The notes under the pieces are model-generated. The model saw nothing but the letters and a program-made list of their open reading frames with translations, ran no database searches and was not told the origin of the DNA. A stretch of DNA of 64,000 bases from an uncultured Gammaproteobacteria bacterium (lineage in GTDB: Bacteria; Patescibacteriota; Microgenomatia; Levybacterales; GWA1-39-11): the NCBI GenBank assembly GCA_964406795.1, contig CAYOTA010000004.1:46877-110876 (forward strand). Reading direction: 5' to 3'. The translations under genes and the position numbers were made by a program. Shown here piece after piece: positions 3,843 to 27,433 of this stretch (its first letter is position 1; each line of letters opens with the position of its first letter).

Positions 3843-4706
3843 TCAGCCCATCTTTTCGACGGCGTCACGCAACTGCGCGGCGGCGGTGCGCAAGGCCTGC
3901 TCCAGCCGTGTCTCGGCAGGGTGCGCGGCGACCAAGTGCTGAATCTCCGCGGTCGGCTCCGCGCCGTGGGGCACCAAGCCGACTCCATGGTAGTCGAGGC
4001 GGCCACCCAGGCCGCCAAGGAGCAGGACGGCGGGCAGGTCACCAAACGTGCTTTTGACCATCCGCTGCTCGTCATCCCAACACGCCCGCAGATCCTCGGG
4101 CGCCGTGGCCCACGGCACGATCATGACCCCCTTGCGGCGCCACGGTTCCGGAGTGGCAGCTTCGCCCACCGCCCGGGCGGTGCCAGCGGCGGCGATAGTT
4201 TCCTCCCAATCTCCGCCCGGACGCCCCACCGCCCACACCGTCTCGTCGCGGCGATAGGCCACCTCCATGGATACCGTCCAGCGATGACGCCCGCCCAGGT
4301 GCTGGCCCACCACCGTTTGCATCGTGTGCGCGAGCTTCGCGTAGCTCGCGATCCCATCGATGGCATGGCCGGCCTCATCCGAAACCAGCTTGACCTCCAG
4401 CACGCTGCCAAGGATGGAGTCGCCCTTCATCTTGGGGCCATCCGGGTGATAGGCCTTCATGCGGTGGCCCAGATTGAAGACCTGGTGCCGCAGCGCCGCG
4501 AAGTTGCGCTGCACGGTCTCGGGCGCGATGGCGGTGCCGTAGGCGCTGACCACCGGAAAATTCCGGGACAGGCGAAACCGCACGTAGCCCTTGTACTCGT
4601 CCGGCTGGTAGCGCTGCCCACCAAACTCCACCTCCGTGCTACCGCACAACTGGACTTCGTCCCCGGCTCCGCACAGCAGTTCGGCGATCTCCTGATCCGT
4701 ATTCAT
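3843..4706 (-). CDS. hypothetical protein (288 aa, start MNTDQEIAELL)
   Basis: C-terminal part of track ORF 3843..5513; its start forms an ATGA overlap with the stop of the upstream HxH-repeat gene. Confidence 0.5.
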   Translation of the reverse strand: MNTDQEIAELLCGAGDEVQLCGSTEVEFGGQRYQPDEYKGYVRFRLSRNFPVVSAYGTAIAPETVQRNFAALRHQVFNLGHRMKAYHPDGPKMKGDSILGSVLEVKLVSDEAGHAIDGIASYAKLAHTMQTVVGQHLGGRHRWTVSMEVAYRRDETVWAVGRPGGDWEETIAAAGTARAVGEAATPEPWRRKGVMIVPWATAPEDLRACWDDEQRMVKSTFGDLPAVLLLGGLGGRLDYHGVGLVPHGAEPTAEIQHLVAAHPAETRLEQALRTAAAQLRDAVEKMG

Positions 4707-6352
4707 GGCAAGACCTCCACCGCGCTGAGGAACACATTCTGGGTGGCCCCGTGCGGCGCGAGACTCAGCAGGATCTCGCCCGCCGCGTCCGGGCGCAGCG
4801 TCAACTCCCGCACGCACGCCCGGAACGTGCCCGGAGCCACCGCAAACACGTCCAGCGAGGCGATGGTCGCCACCGTCGCGCCCGTGGCTGATACCGCCAT
4901 CACGCACACCCCGGCGGCGCCGCCCGTCCCCAAGTCCGCCCAGTGCAGCCGGAGGGTGTATTCGTGCTCCGGTGCGAGACCCGTGAGCACCAGAGTGAAG
5001 ACCCCGCCATCCGTGCGCGCCCGCGCTGTTTGGTAGATCGCCTCCGGCGCCGCCTCCGCCACGCCGCTGCGGTCGATGGCCTCCGCGGTGATGAGGTTGC
5101 TGCCCGCCGCCAGGAGTTGGTGCGCCAGGTAGGGATACAGCGCCGGCCCACCCAGATTGATCCGCCACCCCGGGTGCGGGCTCATGCGGTAGTGCAGGGC
5201 CACATCCAGCGCCGTGTGCCGCAGTCCTGAGGTGGCGCTGTGGGAAACCACCCGCCACGCCAACCTCGCGCCCGGAGGAACCACCAACTCCGACAGGGTA
5301 ACCGACGCCTCCACAGATACGCCCATAGCTCCCGCCGGCAAAGTCAGGGTAATCCCCGTGGCGACACCCGCCCAGAGCAACTCGAGCACCGTCGGCTCCG
5401 GCGCGCCCATCGCCAAGGCCTGCGCGCGGACGACCGTGGCCTGAATGGCGGCACCCCACTGGCGCCAGCCGGGCAGCAGCCCCTCGGCCTCCGGTTGCAC
5501 CCCGGCACTCCAACCCACCACGAATTCGGTGGCCGGCACCGATCCCAAGCCCAACGCGGAGAGCTGTCGCAGCAGGCTGTAATCCGCCGCAGCCAGAAAG
5601 CCGGGTGCCTCCTCGGTGGCCAGCGAATGCGAGTGGTTGCCCCTGGCCGCCTGCTCGGCCCCAGTGCCCGCCGGCACCGAGAGCCCGTCCTCACCGGCAG
5701 CAATCGGGATGCCCGAGGCCGGCGCCGCATCCAGCCTGACGCTGGCCCGCACCACCCCCGCTTCGATGTTGACCGCAGCGGTGGGCGTGTCCCCGCCCTC
5801 CAAGACTTCCGCGGCGGGTCCATGCTCATGATCCCCGCGCGCCGCTTGCCCGTGGGCGTCGCCGAAGTCGAGCGCCAGCCCAGCCTCGCCCACCACCAGT
5901 CCACCGCCGGGAGCCAGCCGCACGGCGCCGGTCAATTGCTGCCCGCTGAGCTGCAGCTCCACCGTGGTCGTAGCGGCCACGCTCAGTGGATCGTGCAACT
6001 GGTCATGGGAATGATCGCCAGGGGCGGCTTGTTGCGCACCGGCGCCCAACTGCACCGCCAAACCCGCCTCGGTCACCGCGAGCGGCCCCTCCGGCGCGAC
6101 CCGCACCACCAGCGTGCGCGTGCCGTCTCCGGCCACGAATTCCACTCCACCACCAGCCACGAGCCACGCCTCCGTGGCCGCCCGTACCGCCGCCGCCAAC
6201 CCCGTCACCTCGCCCGCAGCGTGGGCGTGCGCGGGCAACCCCAGGGACTCCAACAGGGTCAGCAGGTCCATCCGGCGCACGGGTTCCGTGCCGTCGGATG
6301 GGGCCTGCCCCACGAAAACCCGCCCCACCGTCAAGGCAACCAATTCATTCAT
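4703..6352 (-). CDS. HxH tail-fibre-repeat protein (549 aa)
   Basis: Three repeats G-x-x-Q-A-A-x-G-(D/N)-H-(S/E)-H (GDHSHDQLHD, GDHEHGP, GNHSHS) typical of phage tail-fibre HxH repeats; ATGA overlaps at both ends. Confidence 0.5.
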   Translation of the reverse strand: MNELVALTVGRVFVGQAPSDGTEPVRRMDLLTLLESLGLPAHAHAAGEVTGLAAAVRAATEAWLVAGGGVEFVAGDGTRTLVVRVAPEGPLAVTEAGLAVQLGAGAQQAAPGDHSHDQLHDPLSVAATTTVELQLSGQQLTGAVRLAPGGGLVVGEAGLALDFGDAHGQAARGDHEHGPAAEVLEGGDTPTAAVNIEAGVVRASVRLDAAPASGIPIAAGEDGLSVPAGTGAEQAARGNHSHSLATEEAPGFLAAADYSLLRQLSALGLGSVPATEFVVGWSAGVQPEAEGLLPGWRQWGAAIQATVVRAQALAMGAPEPTVLELLWAGVATGITLTLPAGAMGVSVEASVTLSELVVPPGARLAWRVVSHSATSGLRHTALDVALHYRMSPHPGWRINLGGPALYPYLAHQLLAAGSNLITAEAIDRSGVAEAAPEAIYQTARARTDGGVFTLVLTGLAPEHEYTLRLHWADLGTGGAAGVCVMAVSATGATVATIASLDVFAVAPGTFRACVRELTLRPDAAGEILLSLAPHGATQNVFLSAVEVLP

Positions 6353-21484: not shown

Positions 21485-22054
21485 TCAACGCGGGGCAACT
21501 GAACTGGCCGCTTTGTACCAGTCTTCGGCATGGGCATAGACTTTCATCCCGACGTTGGTCCCGATCACCGTGAACAGCCCGTTGACCGTTTTGTCATACA
21601 GCCCAAGCAACTGGCTTCCGCTCAAGTCTCCTTGAATCGTCGCATACATTTTGACCGAGTACGGATTCTTCACCTCGGTCCTCATCTGCGCCGGAAGTTC
21701 GAACACCGCCTCCGTCACGTCCTTCAACAGATTTTCAACCATGAACCGCGGCCAATCATGACGGGCAACAAACGGCAGAAACGGCGGCTCAGGATTGCTG
21801 TTCGGGATCAGGTAGCACAGCCCGACCTTTACGCCGCACCCGTGAGCAAGCATCCGAAACAGCGCCTCCAACTGGCGCAAGGTCTCCCGCTGACGCCCGA
21901 CAAGGCGCTTAGTGTCCGCCGGGTTCGCCGTGATTGTGACCTCGCACGTCCCAGCCGTCTGCTCAACCGCGAAGTCGAGTTCATCCGGTCGCTTGGCCAT
22001 CAAGGTCACCACGCGCCCCAACAGCTCCAGCGCCTTGTCGAGCCGGTCGTTCAT
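21485..22054 (-). CDS. hypothetical protein (189 aa)
   Basis: ATGA overlap with upstream gene. Confidence 0.55.
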   Translation of the reverse strand: MNDRLDKALELLGRVVTLMAKRPDELDFAVEQTAGTCEVTITANPADTKRLVGRQRETLRQLEALFRMLAHGCGVKVGLCYLIPNSNPEPPFLPFVARHDWPRFMVENLLKDVTEAVFELPAQMRTEVKNPYSVKMYATIQGDLSGSQLLGLYDKTVNGLFTVIGTNVGMKVYAHAEDWYKAASSVAPR

Positions 22055-22416
22055 TCGGGTGCCTCCTCACCGGGCACCACCGTTGACGTGATCGACTTAC
22101 GCGGACGCCCGCGTCCCCTCGTTTCCTCCGGTTCAAACAACGTCGGTTGCGCCGGGTCTTCGAGGCTGTCAATCACCTCGTCGGTGACGGTTTCGCAGTA
22201 CCGAATGCGGGTCCTGACCTTCGGCGCCGAGTCCGAGCAATCGATCAGGATCGAGAACGTGACGCTCACCTTTTTCTCGTCCGAATCCGATTGCACCTTG
22301 TCGATTGCCGTCGCGTGCCGGCGATACAGCGTGTCCACGTTGGCCGTGATCGACTTCAAAACACCCGACTGAATCTCACCAAGCTCGCGCTCGGTCGTGA
22401 TCTTCTTTCGTGCCAT
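22051..22416 (-). CDS. hypothetical protein (121 aa, MARKKITTERELGEIQ)
   Basis: Internal Met with a 74-nt gap to the DnaC-like gene. Confidence 0.45.
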   Translation of the reverse strand: MARKKITTERELGEIQSGVLKSITANVDTLYRRHATAIDKVQSDSDEKKVSVTFSILIDCSDSAPKVRTRIRYCETVTDEVIDSLEDPAQPTLFEPEETRGRGRPRKSITSTVVPGEEAPE

Positions 22417-22490
22417 ACAGTTCCTTTCAGTATTGGTTTTCCTACCGACATCGCGACGATCCCATATCGTTAGCCGAATTGCTAGCGCAT

Positions 22491-23318
22491 TTATCGTCCG
22501 AGATAGTTGCCACGATTGCCCGCACGCTGAGACCCGCCCTTGATGGTATTCCACGCGAACGTCGCCTCCCGGAGCCGACTGGCCATGCGCGGTCCGAACA
22601 CGTCCCGGAACTCCGAAGGCGGGATGTTCATCGTCATCACCGTTCGCCGCTTCGCTCCGTACCGGTCGGCCAGAACCTCATGCAACGTCGGCAACTCGTC
22701 CCGGCCACCGACCGAAATCCCGATGTCGTCCAAGATCAGCAACGGCGTTGCCTTTGCTTGTTCCACCACGTCCGGCGCGTGCCGATCATCGTAGCGCCGC
22801 CGAATCCCACGCAAGAACTCCGCCTGGGTCCACATCCGCCCGCCCGATCCGGCGTCAATCCGGTGCCGTAGAATCGCCACCGCCAGGTGGGTCTTGCCGT
22901 TCCCGTACTCCGGACTTTCGAGCATCAGGAACCCGACAGCATTCGAACTCTGTGCGAACTCGCGGGCCTTCGCCAGCACCCGCTGATCGTCCGGATGTTC
23001 GACCCGCCAGTTGTCGAACGAGGCCGCCACGAGGTTCAGCGGCACCCCGACCGCCGTCAGCCGCTCTCGCATCCAGCATTCCCGGCAATCCTCCCATGCC
23101 AGCGCAAACGCCGTCTCCATCGTTCGGGCGGTCTCGGTGCGGTCCAAGCGTTGCACCCCGACTCCGCACGCCCCGCAAGTCCGCTCCCACTTGGCTTCAT
23201 CAGCCCCAAGCAACTCCGCGATCCGTGGTCGAACCGCCTCGCGCCGCGCTACCGCCTTGGCCAACAGTTCGTCCATCCGGTTCTGGATGTCGACTGGCTT
23301 GTCCGTCGTAACCGTCAT
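22491..23318 (-). CDS. DnaC/IstB-like AAA+ helicase-loader ATPase
   Basis: Walker A GNGKTHLAVAI and Walker B LLILDDIG. Confidence 0.8.
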   Translation of the reverse strand: MTVTTDKPVDIQNRMDELLAKAVARREAVRPRIAELLGADEAKWERTCGACGVGVQRLDRTETARTMETAFALAWEDCRECWMRERLTAVGVPLNLVAASFDNWRVEHPDDQRVLAKAREFAQSSNAVGFLMLESPEYGNGKTHLAVAILRHRIDAGSGGRMWTQAEFLRGIRRRYDDRHAPDVVEQAKATPLLILDDIGISVGGRDELPTLHEVLADRYGAKRRTVMTMNIPPSEFRDVFGPRMASRLREATFAWNTIKGGSQRAGNRGNYLGR

Positions 23319-24219
23319 CGGTCCCCCCTCATCGGTGTCGTCAAGTTCCGCAGTTCATCCGCCCACTCGTCCGCCGTCTGCCCGTTGTCGGAGCTTCGAT
23401 TGCCATTCGCGCCCTGGGCAATCTCAGCCCCCACCTCATTCCAGAACCGGGCCAGCATCGGGAGGGTCGTGGTCTTGCTCGCCCGCCAGCCCTTGCACCG
23501 GGTCGCCGCCTCGAACACCCGCCCCACCTCCTCGGCGGTCACGCCCGCCGCAACCAAACCCGCTGCCGCCGCCCCATCCTGCCTCGCGTCCGGCACGTAC
23601 ACCCGCCCGAACCGCTGGCCATAGATGCCAGCGAACACCCGGACCACCTCCTTCGCCTCGGGGCTTGGCGGAACCGCGAGCTTGCGACGACGGGAAGGGG
23701 CGTCCCCTGCCAAGGGGACTGTAGGGGTTCCCCTCTTTGGTTCTACTGACGGTTCTACTGACGGATCAAGGGGGGGTGTTTTCTGCCCCCCTAGGGGTAT
23801 GTTTCTTGCCCCCCCCCGGGGGGTGTTTTCTGACCCCCGGGGGATATGATTTTCGACCCCCCCATTTTCAGTTGCTTCAACGGCTTCTTCGGAGGTCTCT
23901 GCCGCTGCTTCTCGTGCCAGTTCAGTCCTCGACTTTCTCGTCTCGCGGTCCAGCCTCTGAACGTCCCAAACTAGGATGCTCGATGTCTGGGAACCGTTCG
24001 GGCGAAATCTCGGTGTCCTCGTAAACCACTTCTCCGATTCCAGCTCGGCCACCATCGCCTTGGCCGTGCCTTCCGAAATCCCGCACCGCACCGCAATTCG
24101 CGTGATCGATGGCCAGCACACCCCTCGTTCATCCGCCAAGTCCGCAAGGTAAAGCGCAACGAGCTTCTTCGATGCTGGGGTGAATGGTAGGACCCAAATA
24201 GGTGCCGATATGTGAACGC
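23315..24219 (-). CDS. replication initiator-like HTH protein (GTG start)
   Basis: Winged-helix segment KKLVALYLADLADERGVCWPSITRIAVRCGISEGTAKAMV; central peptide repeats [IT]P[RL]GG are encoded by the iteron-like DNA repeats; GTGA overlap with the 79-aa gene. Confidence 0.5.
23770..23863. repeat. four abutting iteron-like units G(5-7)-T-rich core (TGTTTTCTG-like)-C(5-9), 21-25 bp each
   Basis: gggggggtgttttctgcccccc / ggggtatgtttcttgccccccccc / ggggggtgttttctgaccccc / gggggatatgattttcgaccccccc. Confidence 0.6.
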
Positions 24220-24459
24220 TCACGCCGCTCCTCCGATCCTCAGGTTTCTCCCCTGCTCGAACCGCTCGTCGCAGTACCAGCCGCCCGCACCATCGATCAG
24301 GATCGGGAACCAGCGAATGCCCATCTCGTCCCGGACGAATACATGGCCATGCGCGTTGGCCCGAAGCCTGATCCTCGCCCGCCCAGGCGGCAGTCCACGA
24401 ATCGGTTGAACCGGCTGAACCCCAACCACGCACGGCTGCCCATACATCACCGTCGCCAT
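24220..24459 (-). CDS. hypothetical protein (79 aa)
   Basis: Good RBS GGGAGGTAAGCG before ATG; first gene after a 214-nt intergenic gap. Confidence 0.5.
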   Translation of the reverse strand: MATVMYGQPCVVGVQPVQPIRGLPPGRARIRLRANAHGHVFVRDEMGIRWFPILIDGAGGWYCDERFEQGRNLRIGGAA

Positions 24460-24659
24460 CGCTTACCTCCCAACGAAAAACGGACCATCGAAAGGGAGGC
24501 GGGTGGTGGTAGAACCCCGCAGACGAAGGCTCCCAGCCGAAGCCGGTCACCGCGCCGCCCTTCCAATGGTCCAGTCGTTTTCAACATCTGCTCTTTCCGT
24601 CACCGGCTCGGGTACCACGCCTTGCCGATGCCCCACATTTAGGTCGCCGCAGGTCCGTT

Positions 24660-24935
24660 GTCTAGCCTGTTCGCTACCCCGACCCCGACCGCGACCACGA
24701 CCACGACCCCGACCGCGACCACGACCGCGACCCCGACCGCGACCACGACCGCGACCCCGACCGCGACCCCGACCGCGACCCCGACCCCGACCGCGACCAC
24801 GACCACGACCACGACCCCGACCACGACCCCGACCCCGACCCCGACCGCGACCGCGACCCCGACCACGACCCCGACCGCGACCGCGACCCCGACCACGACC
24901 ACGACCACGACCCCGACCACGACAAGTCGATTCCC
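24660..24935. repeat. hexanucleotide microsatellite (CGACCN), about 45 units
   Basis: cgaccc / cgaccg / cgacca units repeated without interruption. Confidence 0.9.
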
Positions 24936-24958
24936 GTCCTTGCGACCGCCGCGTTCAT
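24674..24958 (-). CDS. low-complexity [S][W/G/R] dipeptide-repeat protein (94 aa)
   Basis: Minus-strand frame of the microsatellite; its ATG forms an ATGA overlap with the upstream stop. The plus-strand PRPRPR frame is rejected. Confidence 0.45.
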   Translation of the reverse strand: MNAAVARTGIDLSWSGSWSWSWSGSRSRSGSWSGSRSRSGSGSGSWSGSWSWSWSRSGSGSRSGSRSGSRSWSRSGSRSWSRSGSWSWSRSGSG

Positions 24959-25284
24959 TTCTGGCTCCGGTTGAATTTCTTGATCCGTGCCGCCTCGATG
25001 ATCGCGCCACGCCCGACCAGCACGCGTCCGTCCGGGTATGGCTCGACCTCATTGAACAACGACGGGTCTTTCAGCGAGTCGCTGAAGCGTCCGGTGTCGG
25101 CAATCCACGCCGCATCCTCCAGCACGATCTCATGCGGTGTAACCGCCACCACGCGCCCGGTGTCGATCATCGTGACCGTCCGAATCAGGTAATGCTCGCC
25201 GATCTCCCACGGGCAGTCCGCCGTATTGGTTTCGGTCGGGCGCACCGACATCAGTTCTTTCAAGTCTGCGAGTGTGATTTCCAT
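24955..25284 (-). CDS. hypothetical protein (~109 aa, MEITLADLKEL)
   Basis: Internal Met of track ORF 24955..25344. Confidence 0.4.
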   Translation of the reverse strand: MEITLADLKELMSVRPTETNTADCPWEIGEHYLIRTVTMIDTGRVVAVTPHEIVLEDAAWIADTGRFSDSLKDPSLFNEVEPYPDGRVLVGRGAIIEAARIKKFNRSQK

Positions 25285-25354
25285 TTGCTTTCCGTTCTCC
25301 GGTGTTGTCCCGGGGGCCGGACTACCGAGTCCCGCACCCGTCACATGCGCCGGT

Positions 25355-25561
25355 TCATTCCAATTCCCACTGCGATTCGAGCTTGCCTGTTATCATCGCC
25401 TTTGCGCCACAGCATGTCGCAAATTTCTCCGCCCACACGATGCCATCCTGGTTCGTCACGCTCCACCATCCATCTGGCAAACGTGTCAGCAAGTAGCTTC
25501 GACCGCCGTGCTTGAACGTGGTTCGATACGCCCGATTTTTCACAGAACGATCATCGTGCAT
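25355..25561 (-). CDS. hypothetical protein (68 aa)
   Basis: ORF immediately downstream of the SbcC-like gene. Confidence 0.4.
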   Translation of the reverse strand: MHDDRSVKNRAYRTTFKHGGRSYLLTRLPDGWWSVTNQDGIVWAEKFATCCGAKAMITGKLESQWELE

Positions 25562-27433
25562 CGGTTGCCATACACGTCCAGTACATCACGTCCGTCGATC
25601 ATCCGGACCGTCCCGGGCACCGTCGCGTCGATCATGATCGCTTGATCGATCTTCCCATCCCGAATCAGTTCCTCCATCCGGATCGCCACATCCTGACGGC
25701 GGGAAAGCGACAGCCGTCCCATCTCGTCCAGCACGACCAACCGGAAGTTGGCGGTCCGCGCCAGAGCCACGCTGAACCCCGCGTAGGCCAGCAGTTGCTC
25801 GGTCCCGCTGAAACTCGTGTGCGGCACCCATCCTCCGTCCTCGGTCCTCCCAAGCTCACCGTCCCGGAACTCGAGCTTCGACCGAAGCAGCCCTGAAGTG
25901 AAGTCGTCCGAAAGCTTCAGCACCTCCGCAAACGCCCTTTCCGACACGTCCTTGACCACCTGATTGATGGCCTTCACCGCCTCGGCATAACAGGTGGCCG
26001 TGCACTCCTCGCGCAACACCTCAGATTCCTTCGCCTCACGTGCCTCCAGCAGGCGGTCGTAGTTGTCGGACTCGGTCTTCGCCTGCTCAGCCTGCGTCAC
26101 CGCCAGCGTGGCCTCGGGCAATGCCTCCACCTCCTTCGTCAGCTCGGCGATGCGCCCCGACTGATCGGTCTCGGCCTCCGCCAGTTGCGTACGGTAGCCC
26201 ATAAGTCGCTTCGTCTGTGCCTCCAGTTCGTTCGACCACTTCGCTCGCTGCGCCTGCGCCTGATTCCATGCCTCCAACTCCTGCTCGTACTGACCGGCAA
26301 TCGAAGCGATGTCCTCAAATTCATCATTCAACGCCTGCAACTGATCGTCGGTCCGTGCCAACCCAGATTCCAACTCAACCACGCTCGCCCGCTCGCGCTC
26401 GATCAGCTTCGAGTTGTCCGCGTGTTGTCCACAGGTCGGACAGATTGTGACGCCCGCCAGCCGTTCGATTATGGACCTGGCCATGGCCACTCGCTCGGCA
26501 ATGTTTTCGTGCGCCTCCCTGATCTCTTCGATCTCCGATATCGCCGCATCGTAGTCGGTCAGGATCTTCGGCTTGATCGGCTCTTCGCCAGGGTCCTTCG
26601 CGCCCTCCAAGGATTTGCTCGCGATCGCCACCACCGCCTCAGCCATCGAAATCTTCACCTTTAACGACGCGACCAACGCATTGCCGTCCAGAATGGTCCT
26701 CAGCTCGCCCCGCTTTGCCACCAGCGCGTCACGCTTGGCCTTCAGCTCCTCCATGTTCTCCGGTCGCTTAGGAAGCGAGAGCGGCAACGTCATGCCGGCG
26801 AACGCGCCAGCCGCCACCTTGTGCCTGACCTTCGCGTCCTTCGCCTCGGACGACCACGATGTCACCAGTTTCTCCACCGCCGCCTGGGCGGTCGTGCCAG
26901 CCTCGGCGAAGCCATCCGTGACCTCCGCCCCGAGCTTGCGCAATACCGCGTCCCGGACCTTCGCCGGACTCGCCTTGATCTTGCCAAGCTCAGCCTCAAT
27001 CGTCGCCGGCTCGATCTTGACGTTGCCCGCCGCGGCGAAGATCGCATCGATCCGTTCGGCTCCAGTCATCGCGAAGAACTGCCGGACATCCACCAACATC
27101 GGGTTGAGCATCAGATCGAACGGCACCGCGCTTTCGGTGCTTACCTTTCCCTTTGCGTTGCGCGTGAACCGAAGTCCGGACGTGCGCCCGGTGTCGAACG
27201 TCGCCTCGACCTCCATCAGGCCCGGGTCGTCCGGATGTCCGGCCAACGCGCCGTAAAGCGCACCCGGGAGCTTGCCAATCGCCGGCAGATAGCCCGTGAG
27301 CGCCAGCCGGAGCGCGTCGGGAATCGTACTCTTGCCGGTGAAGTTGTCGCCGCAGACCAACGTCAGCGATCCAAGCTCATGCTCGAACATCTGACCCTTG
27401 AAGTTGTTCCCTACGAGTTTCGTGACGTGCATG
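25540..27433 (-). CDS. SbcC/Rad50-like SMC-family ATPase
   Basis: Walker A GDNFTGKST, central coiled coil with zinc hook CPTC, D-loop/Walker B VVLDEMG. Confidence 0.7.

Follow-up and report, generated by a model that had tools for sequence, protein, structure and literature searches.

Initiator Gene and Its Internal Repeat Array

This analysis concerns a 64-kb stretch (64,000 nucleotides) of contig CAYOTA010000004.1 (assembly GCA_964406795.1), referred to below as the window, in which an array of four G-run/C-run repeats lies inside the replication initiator gene of an uncultured phage and probably belongs to its replication origin. The initiator gene (23315..24223, minus strand) starts with a GTG codon at 24223, just after the ribosome-binding site GGAGGAG, and encodes a product of 302 amino acids (aa) that is 100% identical to the public protein P0001. 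According to the Pfam search, the N-terminus of the product belongs to HTH_36 (E = 3 × 10−9), with no other Pfam match, and matches to PHROG replication-initiation groups spanned E-values from 1 × 10−19 to 1 × 10−7, including PHROGs 1032 and 391, "replication initiation (O-like)" (E = 1 × 10−19 and 2 × 10−16, respectively). A PDB sequence search and a word-based protein search with the N-domain alone gave no match; an exhaustive HMMER search was needed for the N-domain, and it retrieved 3388 representative homologues (cluster representatives) at E ≤ 0.001. The gene directly downstream (22491..23318, minus strand), which overlaps the stop codon of the initiator gene by 4 nt, encodes a DnaC/IstB-like AAA+ helicase loader (Pfam IstB_IS21, E = 7 × 10−12; PHROG 50, "DnaC-like helicase loader", E = 4 × 10−34).

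The initiator consists of an N-terminal winged helix, an unstructured linker and a C-terminal helical domain. The N-terminal winged helix-turn-helix DNA-binding domain (residues 1–112; 23888..24223, minus strand) was modelled with AlphaFold2 from a 58-sequence alignment with a predicted local distance difference test (pLDDT) score of 95.6; the model shows an H-H-H-H order of helices, a beta-hairpin wing and a long helix at residues 88–111, placing the domain boundary at about residue 111–120. The nearest solved structures are winged helices of the MarR and TFE types (template modelling score of about 0.5). Residues 121–187 have no predicted secondary structure, the N-domain extending to residue 120 and the C-domain starting at residue 188 in a low-confidence full-length model (single sequence, pLDDT 44.8), which was used only for the missing secondary structure of the linker. 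The C-terminal domain segment (23315..23737, minus strand) is 79–90% identical to the corresponding parts of the proteins P0002 and P0003, whose N-domains are unrelated to that of the window, and is presumed to be a loader-interaction module.

The array (23770–23863) reads GGGGGGGTGTTTTCTGCCCCCC TA GGGGTATGTTTCTTGCCCCCCCCC GGGGGGTGTTTTCTGACCCCC GGGGGATATGATTTTCGACCCCCCC on the plus strand. On the minus strand, which is the gene strand, it forms four iteron-like units of 21–25 bp, each composed of a G4–9 run, an A-rich core GAAAAC and a C4–7 run: unit 1 at 23839–23863 (G7-TCGAAAATCATAT-C5; in full, GGGGGGGTCGAAAATCATATCCCCC), unit 2 at 23818–23838 (G5-TCAGAAAACA-C6; GGGGGTCAGAAAACACCCCCC), unit 3 at 23794–23817 (G9-CAAGAAACATA-C4; GGGGGGGGGCAAGAAACATACCCC) and unit 4 at 23770–23791 (G6-CAGAAAACA-C7; GGGGGGCAGAAAACACCCCCCC), the last adjoining the conserved 12-mer element described below. 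The start-to-start distances are 25, 21 and 26 bp. Tandem Repeats Finder (TRF) detected the array with periods of 23–24 and 47 (top score 130), and a repeat finder identified a 46-nt double unit in three copies. The pattern G5-N8–13-C5 had six overlapping matches in the window, all of them inside the array, versus 1.05 expected from shuffled sequences, none of 100 shuffles reaching six. Neither additional copies of the unit outside the array nor another iteron-like array were found within the window. The units encode residues 121–152 of the initiator, with the translated peptide GGVENHIPRGSENTPRGGARNIPLGGQKTPPL; the reading frame of the core is the same in three units and shifted in the fourth.

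The sequence-only reading of this locus had described four abutting G-run/core/C-run units within an initiator-like coding sequence, translated into a repeated peptide linker. The four units are real, as TRF, the repeat finder and the shuffle enrichment agree, and they do lie inside the open reading frame (ORF) 23315–24223. The general form of the unit also stood, except that one plus-strand run is G4 and not the G5 proposed; the units are mostly contiguous, but a TA dinucleotide stands between two of them; and the translation agrees with the repeated linker apart from the shifted frame of the fourth core.

Conserved 12-mer Element and Inverted Repeat

Directly 3' of the units, a conserved DNA element (23739..23767, minus strand) comprises 2.4 copies of a 12-mer, GATCCGTCAGTA GAACCGTCAGTA GAACC. 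The 12-mer has the form GA(A/T)CCGTCAGTA with the core GAACC(A/G)TCA, and TRF assigned it a period of 12 with a 100% match. These are the sole copies in the window. They encode residues 154–162, so that the units and the 12-mers are both located in the part of the gene that encodes the linker (residues 121–187). The element is a candidate for the unwinding or helicase-loading part of an origin. It takes the position of the AT-rich region of lambda at a guanine–cytosine (GC) content of about 50%, the GC content of the genome being ~62%. The dip in GC content is confined to the ~30–40 bp of the element and reaches about 0.12–0.14 below the local mean, partly by construction; in a GC meta-profile of 25 lineages, a dip was likewise seen only over the conserved element, with no wider AT-rich region. 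The 12-mer was also considered as a DnaA box or as an IHF or CtrA site, and this was rejected, with at most five of nine consensus positions agreeing (by eye). No DnaA-box-like sequence was seen beside the repeats by eye, without a formal scan.

Approximately 20 bp past the 12-mers, at the start of the part encoding the C-domain, lies an inverted repeat with 7-bp arms, GTCCCCT-TGGC-AGGGGAC (23702..23719). Its counterparts are TCCCCT-CGGC-AGGGGA in contig L002 (~2150–2170), GTCCCCC-GGT-GGGGGAC in L148 (~2572–2590) and GTCGCCA-AC-TGGCGAC in L149 (~543–558); in the last of these, both arms are altered and the 5' arm is in a different frame. With four sequences only, the apparent conservation of the inverted repeat is anecdotal. 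In many relatives (L007, L008, L018, L024 and L095), an alternating GCGCGC-type palindrome (peptide ARARA) follows directly past the GAACCNTCAGTA repeats and possibly corresponds to the inverted repeat of the window.

Exchange of the Repeats with the N-terminal Domain in Close Relatives

The closest relatives of the N-domain in the exhaustive HMMER search, L148 and L149 (47–48% identity), carry repeats of the same type at the equivalent place. In L148, seven G-run/A-rich-core/C-run units were found (for example, GGGGGGG-AGAAAACCA-CCCCCC), together with a C-domain of the window type and an IstB-like loader gene after it; L149 has four G-run/C-run units. Meanwhile, the initiators P0002 (L002) and P0003 (L004) share with the window the C-terminal half described above, have unrelated N-terminal halves, and carry different repeats at the equivalent site, namely, three repeats of about 23 bp in L002 (GCAGGGTGGAAATGCGCTTCAGG) and three of 24 bp in L004 (CGAAACGCCGAAACGGCATCTCG). 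The DNA homology between the window and the P0002/P0003 genes starts exactly past the 12-mers. Thus, one C-domain is joined to three unrelated N-domains and three repeat sets (L002, 1716–2552; L003; L004, 38–802; window, 23315–23737), and the mosaic breakpoint coincides with the exact end of the iteron/12-mer cassette. The presence of different repeats with different N-domains and the start of homology past the 12-mers indicate that the N-domain and the repeats were exchanged as one cassette. An IstB-like loader gene follows the C-domain genes of L002/L003 and L148, directly or past one small gene. In the gene of the HTH_36 initiator P0004 (L005; 29% identity), seven units of the palindromic form GGGGTGTCCT..AGGACACCCC are present; the units of L005 and L146 are clearly palindromic. 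The GAACCGTCAGTA repeats are replaced in L002 by A-rich 12-mers (GAAAGAAAAGTA GAAAACAAAGTA) and by AGACGCGCGCGCGTCT, a perfect palindrome of 16 bp.

Family-Wide Survey of the GAACC(A/G)TCA Element

An exact search with TCAGTAGAACCNTCAGTAGAACC identified 22 viral contigs, versus about 0.01 expected from a rough estimate of the collection size, a codon-degenerate search identified 66 viral contigs, and a metagenome scan with the 12-mer returned 65 loci. Altogether, the element was recorded in L005, L007–L028, L040–L067 and L080–L152, and at least two GAACC(A/G)TCA units directly 3' of an array were found in the window, L005, L007–L024, L080–L145 and L148–L152. In HTH_36-type ORFs, the element is always on the sense strand and directly after a lineage-specific direct-repeat array; HTH_36 was detected in six of the seven sampled motif-bearing ORFs of viral contigs, as well as in P0004 and in the initiators of phages Min27, YeP1 and PP9W2. 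When an array was defined strictly, as at least three copies of a 10-mer with at least two spacings of 19–26 bp within 200 nt upstream, it was present in 23 of 62 metagenome loci versus 2 of 244 control windows. These arrays represented 17 distinct repeat types, with a spacing of 22 bp in 13 cases and of 23 bp in 17; a period of ~22 bp, roughly two helical turns, is the classical iteron period of R6K, RK2 and pPS10. Since only 8 of 40 spacings were divisible by three, so that the frame changes from copy to copy, the repeated entity is DNA and not peptide.

The element itself is conserved as DNA, independently of reading frame and codon bias. Its codons TCA, GTA and GAA are kept in contigs with a GC content of 0.60–0.76, in which the background share of TCA and GTA is about 0.1–0.2 of their codon families, and the only freely variable base is the wobble position of Pro; overall, the element was found after unrelated iterons across GC contents of 0.41–0.76. 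In the L041 group, the element DNA (GAGCCGTCAGTA, two copies) lies in another frame of the initiator-like ORF and is translated as AVSRAVSR. In L149, where the unit period is 11, the motif is read in turn as EPS, NRQ and TV, and in L150 (GC 0.74), L151 and L152 (GC 0.41), GAACC(A/G)TCA is read as EPS and NRQ/NHQ/NHH. Among 117 N-domain homologues gathered without reference to the motif, 23 had at least two of the peptide signatures EPS, NHQ and NRQ within 25 residues, versus 0.2 in shuffles. Many degenerate EPSVEPSV matches, in giant-virus and low-GC contigs and in the Pseudomonadales loci L078 and L079, were rejected as unrelated peptide repeats with mixed codons; in view of these varied codons, they served as a control and not as members.

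The partner genes vary by lineage (IstB-like, DnaB and SSB genes), which argues for a reader of GAACC(A/G)TCA that is either universal among hosts or intrinsic to the initiator. The candidates for this role are the initiator in a single-strand-binding mode, which has been described for lambda O and for Rep proteins of plasmids, the helicase/loader complex and primase.

Cultured Phages and Prophages with HTH_36 Initiators

Genes of the HTH_36 type are present in the Stx phage Min27 (annotated as "O"), in Yersinia phage YeP1 ("replication protein O") and in Pseudomonas phage PP9W2 ("primosomal protein I", ULG00188.1). The initiator genes of Min27 and PP9W2 are situated just downstream of cI/cro/cII-type regulatory genes and that of YeP1 just downstream of a LexA-like repressor gene, and this location past the regulatory genes is the position expected for a replication initiator. 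As in the window, a lineage-specific array with a period of ~22–27 bp is followed by GAACC..TCA-type units in Min27/phi24B-type phages, YeP1, PP9W2 and the presumed Neisseria gonorrhoeae prophages: PP9W2 has five copies of CCGGCA-N6-TGCC and then GAACCGTAATA GAACCATCAAGT GAACCGTCAGTA, YeP1 contains GATCCGTCAGTA, identical to the first 12-mer of the window, and Min27 contains three copies of GGTGGGGCAGGAGCTGCCC. They differ from the window in that the N-domains are only ~33–39% identical, the iterons are unrelated in sequence, and the partner genes are a DnaB helicase gene in PP9W2 and a large "P" gene in Min27. No origin is annotated at the repeat site in the PP9W2, Min27 and YeP1 records.

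N. gonorrhoeae chromosomes match the 12-mer tandem exactly over 34 nt, at the point equivalent to that in the viral-contig family L007; these matches presumably represent prophages, the matching region having no annotation in the collection. The plasmid collection lists two of these chromosomes, 2.17 Mb each (L147; NZ_CP119140.1 and NZ_CP119142.1), as "plasmids". The Pseudomonas phage records MK511001, MK511004–6, MK511010 and MK511013 (positions 4–79) open inside the initiator gene, no more than a few tens of bases from GAACC-type repeats, and the repeat region may be where these assemblies were broken or opened.

Comparison with Mapped Origins

In phage lambda, the origin lies in the central part of gene O, the 19-bp iterons are all imperfect inverted repeats, and the O protein also binds the single-stranded AT-rich region (PMC7466680). 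The lambda sequence contains four annotated iterons, TCCCTCAAAACGAGGGA and its variants, at spacings of 20, 24 and 23 bp in the middle of O, followed by an A-rich stretch and a palindrome, and gene 18 of P22 combines iterons of its own (TCGGTAAAAC) with a palindrome and an A-rich tandem resembling that of lambda. The window shares with both phages the location of the array in the linker-encoding central part of the initiator gene, flanked by the segments for the DNA-binding N-domain and for the C-domain that interacts with the loader or helicase, as well as a lower-GC short tandem followed by an inverted repeat and a loader or helicase gene next. The similarity to lambda extends to the number and size of the iterons (four, of ~19–25 bp, 20–26 bp apart) and to the complementary G/C-rich arms around an A-tract (TCCCTC-AAAAC-GAGGGA in lambda and GGGGGG-CAGAAAACA-CCCCCC in the window), and in lambdoid phages, too, the iterons and the N-domain are exchanged together while the C-domain stays. 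The differences concern the initiator family, which is HTH_36 in the window, whereas lambda O and P22 gp18 belong to Phage_rep_O (PF04492); the loader, which is of the DnaC/IstB-type AAA+ class and not a lambda P; the arms of the units, which in the window are pure homopolymers in G-then-C order; and the long A+T tract of lambda and P22, in place of which the window has the GA(A/T)CCGTCAGTA repeats. It was also considered whether lambda shares the conserved element, but only CGTCAG is common to both, and this was treated as a coincidence.

The iteron plasmids R6K, RK2, F and pPS10 are theta replicons with a winged-helix Rep protein. The window resembles them in combining such a protein with three to seven direct repeats at a ~22-bp period located by an unwinding element (PMC3832669), for which the 12-mer element is the candidate in the window. 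In these plasmids, however, the iterons are outside rep, usually upstream of it, and are often accompanied by DnaA and IHF boxes as well as a distinct A+T-rich region (PMC3832669), whereas the repeats of the window are intragenic, which also distinguishes it from the HTH_36 Rep plasmids of Paracoccus.

Gene Neighborhood

All large genes of the window are on one strand, and it also encodes a portal protein, a DNA methyltransferase and an SbcC-like protein, which together fit a phage or prophage. After the loader gene, there are genes for an AT-hook-containing protein (22051–22554) and a KH-domain-like protein (21485–22054). A KH-like gene, each time preceded by a small gene of 122–130 aa, occupies the matching relative place in L002 (region 4003–4937) and L149 (region 1927–2861); the arrangement looks like part of a conserved replication module. 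A nucleotide search with the replication module against cultured phages gave no match, and no RNA family was found in the region 22000–26000 with Rfam at E ≤ 1.

Tandem arrays of the window other than the units and the 12-mer comprise a weak 21-bp repeat (26700–26746) and a hexamer array (24676–24923), the latter being the only other strong one. It occupies 248 bp, with 41 hexamers of the form GGTCGN on the gene strand and a 24-bp superperiod (TRF score 356), and is located ~450 bp upstream of the initiator start, between ORF 24220–24459 and the gene 24955–25344. The array might code for a low-complexity peptide (ORF 24639–25052); alternatively, it might be a non-coding element in the vicinity of the replication module. 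Two ORFs of the window of exactly 1187 aa each proved to be unrelated.

Interpretation of the Array and Alternative Explanations

The four units are most probably iterons bound by the winged-helix domain of the initiator, and together with the adjoining segment they most likely constitute an intragenic origin of the lambda kind whose initiator comes from another family (estimated probability of about 0.8). The lambdoid-style origin proposed in the sequence-only reading is supported by the identity of the gene, the position of the array in the linker, the adjacent loader gene and the retention of repeats in homologues; the proposed check for repeats in homologous initiators showed that they are kept at the equivalent place and change with the N-terminal DNA-binding domain, the C-domain being constant. 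Every computational test that was run supported the iteron/origin claim. By analogy with lambda O and the iteron plasmids, the N-terminal winged helix would bind each unit, probably in the form of a dimer spanning the complementary G/C arms, and the central A-tract would facilitate DNA bending. Once the four units, spaced by about two helical turns, are occupied, a nucleoprotein complex would form and destabilize the adjoining lower-GC segment, in which the GA(A/T)CCGTCAGTA repeats (23739–23767) and the inverted repeat (23702–23719) lie, and the C-terminal domain would recruit the DnaC/IstB-like loader, the product of the neighboring gene, so that the host DnaB helicase could be placed on the opened DNA and the origin could fire.

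Several observations weigh against this interpretation. There is no pronounced AT-rich tract beside the array; the spacing of the units in the window (25/21/26 bp) is more irregular than in most relatives; and their dyad symmetry is limited to the homopolymer arms (4–9 nt), the 9–13-nt core being asymmetric. No inflection of the GC skew marks the locus; the skew is monotonic and tracks gene orientation, which makes it uninformative on the origin. The loci found by the DNA pattern are biased to the version of the motif with a 12-bp period, and the unbiased evidence comes from fewer loci (L005, L148–L152 and the degenerate scan). No binding or origin-activity experiments were found for the window phage or for HTH_36-type relatives.

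The weak AT-richness beside the array would also suit a different function, in which the initiator binds the units for autoregulation, as an operator or transcription roadblock, or for copy-number control by handcuffing, and the true origin is elsewhere. An initiator bound within its own gene could repress that gene, and plasmid iterons serve both replication and regulatory roles. Such a function is nevertheless considered unlikely, since the window contains no second iteron-like array or unit copy, the layout of iterons, low-GC repeats, inverted repeat and loader gene matches the mapped origins of lambda and P22, and a pure operator would not readily account for the conserved DNA element beside the array. 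It is quite improbable that the repeats are a by-product of a low-complexity Gly/Pro-rich linker expanded by slippage, with DNA that has no function of its own. The region does encode an unstructured linker, and three of the four units share a frame and give similar peptides; however, the fourth unit is in a shifted frame, the period in relatives is 22–23 bp and seldom a multiple of three, a change of DNA-binding domain brings a change of repeats, and the inverted-repeat arms are meaningless at the peptide level.

The composition of the runs allows two further explanations. The G/C runs might act mainly through non-B DNA (a cruciform, an unwound-strand hairpin, a G-quadruplex or an i-motif) and not through sequence-specific binding, given that the G run of each unit pairs with its C run, that neighboring units together form CCCCCGGGGG palindromes and that there are four G runs on each strand. 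The pairing of unit ends, from which the sequence-only reading had derived possible hairpins or cruciforms, is thus feasible, and hairpins do appear in the single-strand DNA fold of the array region, but the structure predicted is no better than in dinucleotide shuffles (z = −1.1, with 28 of 200 shuffles equally stable), and the hairpin or cruciform idea found no support. Moreover, the loops separating the G runs are 14–20 nt long, and the iterons of most related initiators have no G/C runs, meaning that these are not a feature of the family; a role mainly through non-B DNA is accordingly rated as highly improbable. That the homopolymers G9, G7 and C7 are a slippage-based phase-variation switch of the initiator gene is, in turn, extremely improbable. 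Coding runs of seven to nine G are mutable in principle, but the array has the identical sequence in a second public assembly (L006), although this assembly may originate from the same sample, the orthologues L148 and L149 also have G8–G9 runs, all of them in frame, and on/off switching is unlikely for a replication gene that is essential. The earlier description of the tracts as slippage-prone therefore found no support.

The lambda-like intragenic origin remains the preferred interpretation of the array. A broader and more tentative proposal, with chances somewhat short of even, is that GAACC(A/G)TCA(GTA), in two to four copies after the iterons, is a previously unrecognized origin component of HTH_36-type initiators of phages, prophages and plasmids, kept as DNA while the iterons diversify, with a role in duplex opening or in the docking of a universal host component (DnaB helicase or primase) or of a single-strand-binding initiator. 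In this form, the proposal spans Neisseria, Pseudomonas, enterics, Actinobacteria and uncultured lineages with a GC content of 0.41–0.76. If it is true, the EPSVEPS, NHQ and NRQ peptide motifs are frame-dependent read-outs of a single DNA signal. A literature search on the motifs (EPSVEPS, TCAGTAGAACC, GAACCGTCAG and others) returned unrelated primer sequences only, although a description elsewhere is possible, and a search on HTH_36 and origins returned plasmid papers with oriV upstream of rep. A family-wide, frame-independent GAACC(A/G)TCA element beside variable iterons was not found in the literature searched, though other papers may exist.

Significance

An origin inside the initiator gene is a textbook feature of lambda, and the array of the window would be a new member of the lambda-type intragenic origins in a different initiator family. 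Through this, the window of an uncultured and largely unannotated phage gains a candidate replication origin, and two of its genes gain a functional assignment as an O-like initiator and a loader. The lambda principle, in which the origin lies within the initiator gene, the iterons and the DNA-binding domain are swapped together and the unwinding segment beside the iterons is more conserved, appears to be valid in a second and much larger initiator family (HTH_36, with the 3388 cluster representatives matched). GAACC(A/G)TCA could serve as a simple marker for origins in prophages and metagenomic phages, and the question of which component reads the element is tractable in PP9W2, in Min27/phi24B-type Stx phages and in Neisseria prophages. 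Finally, the element is a clean case of DNA-level selection overriding codon usage within a protein-coding gene.

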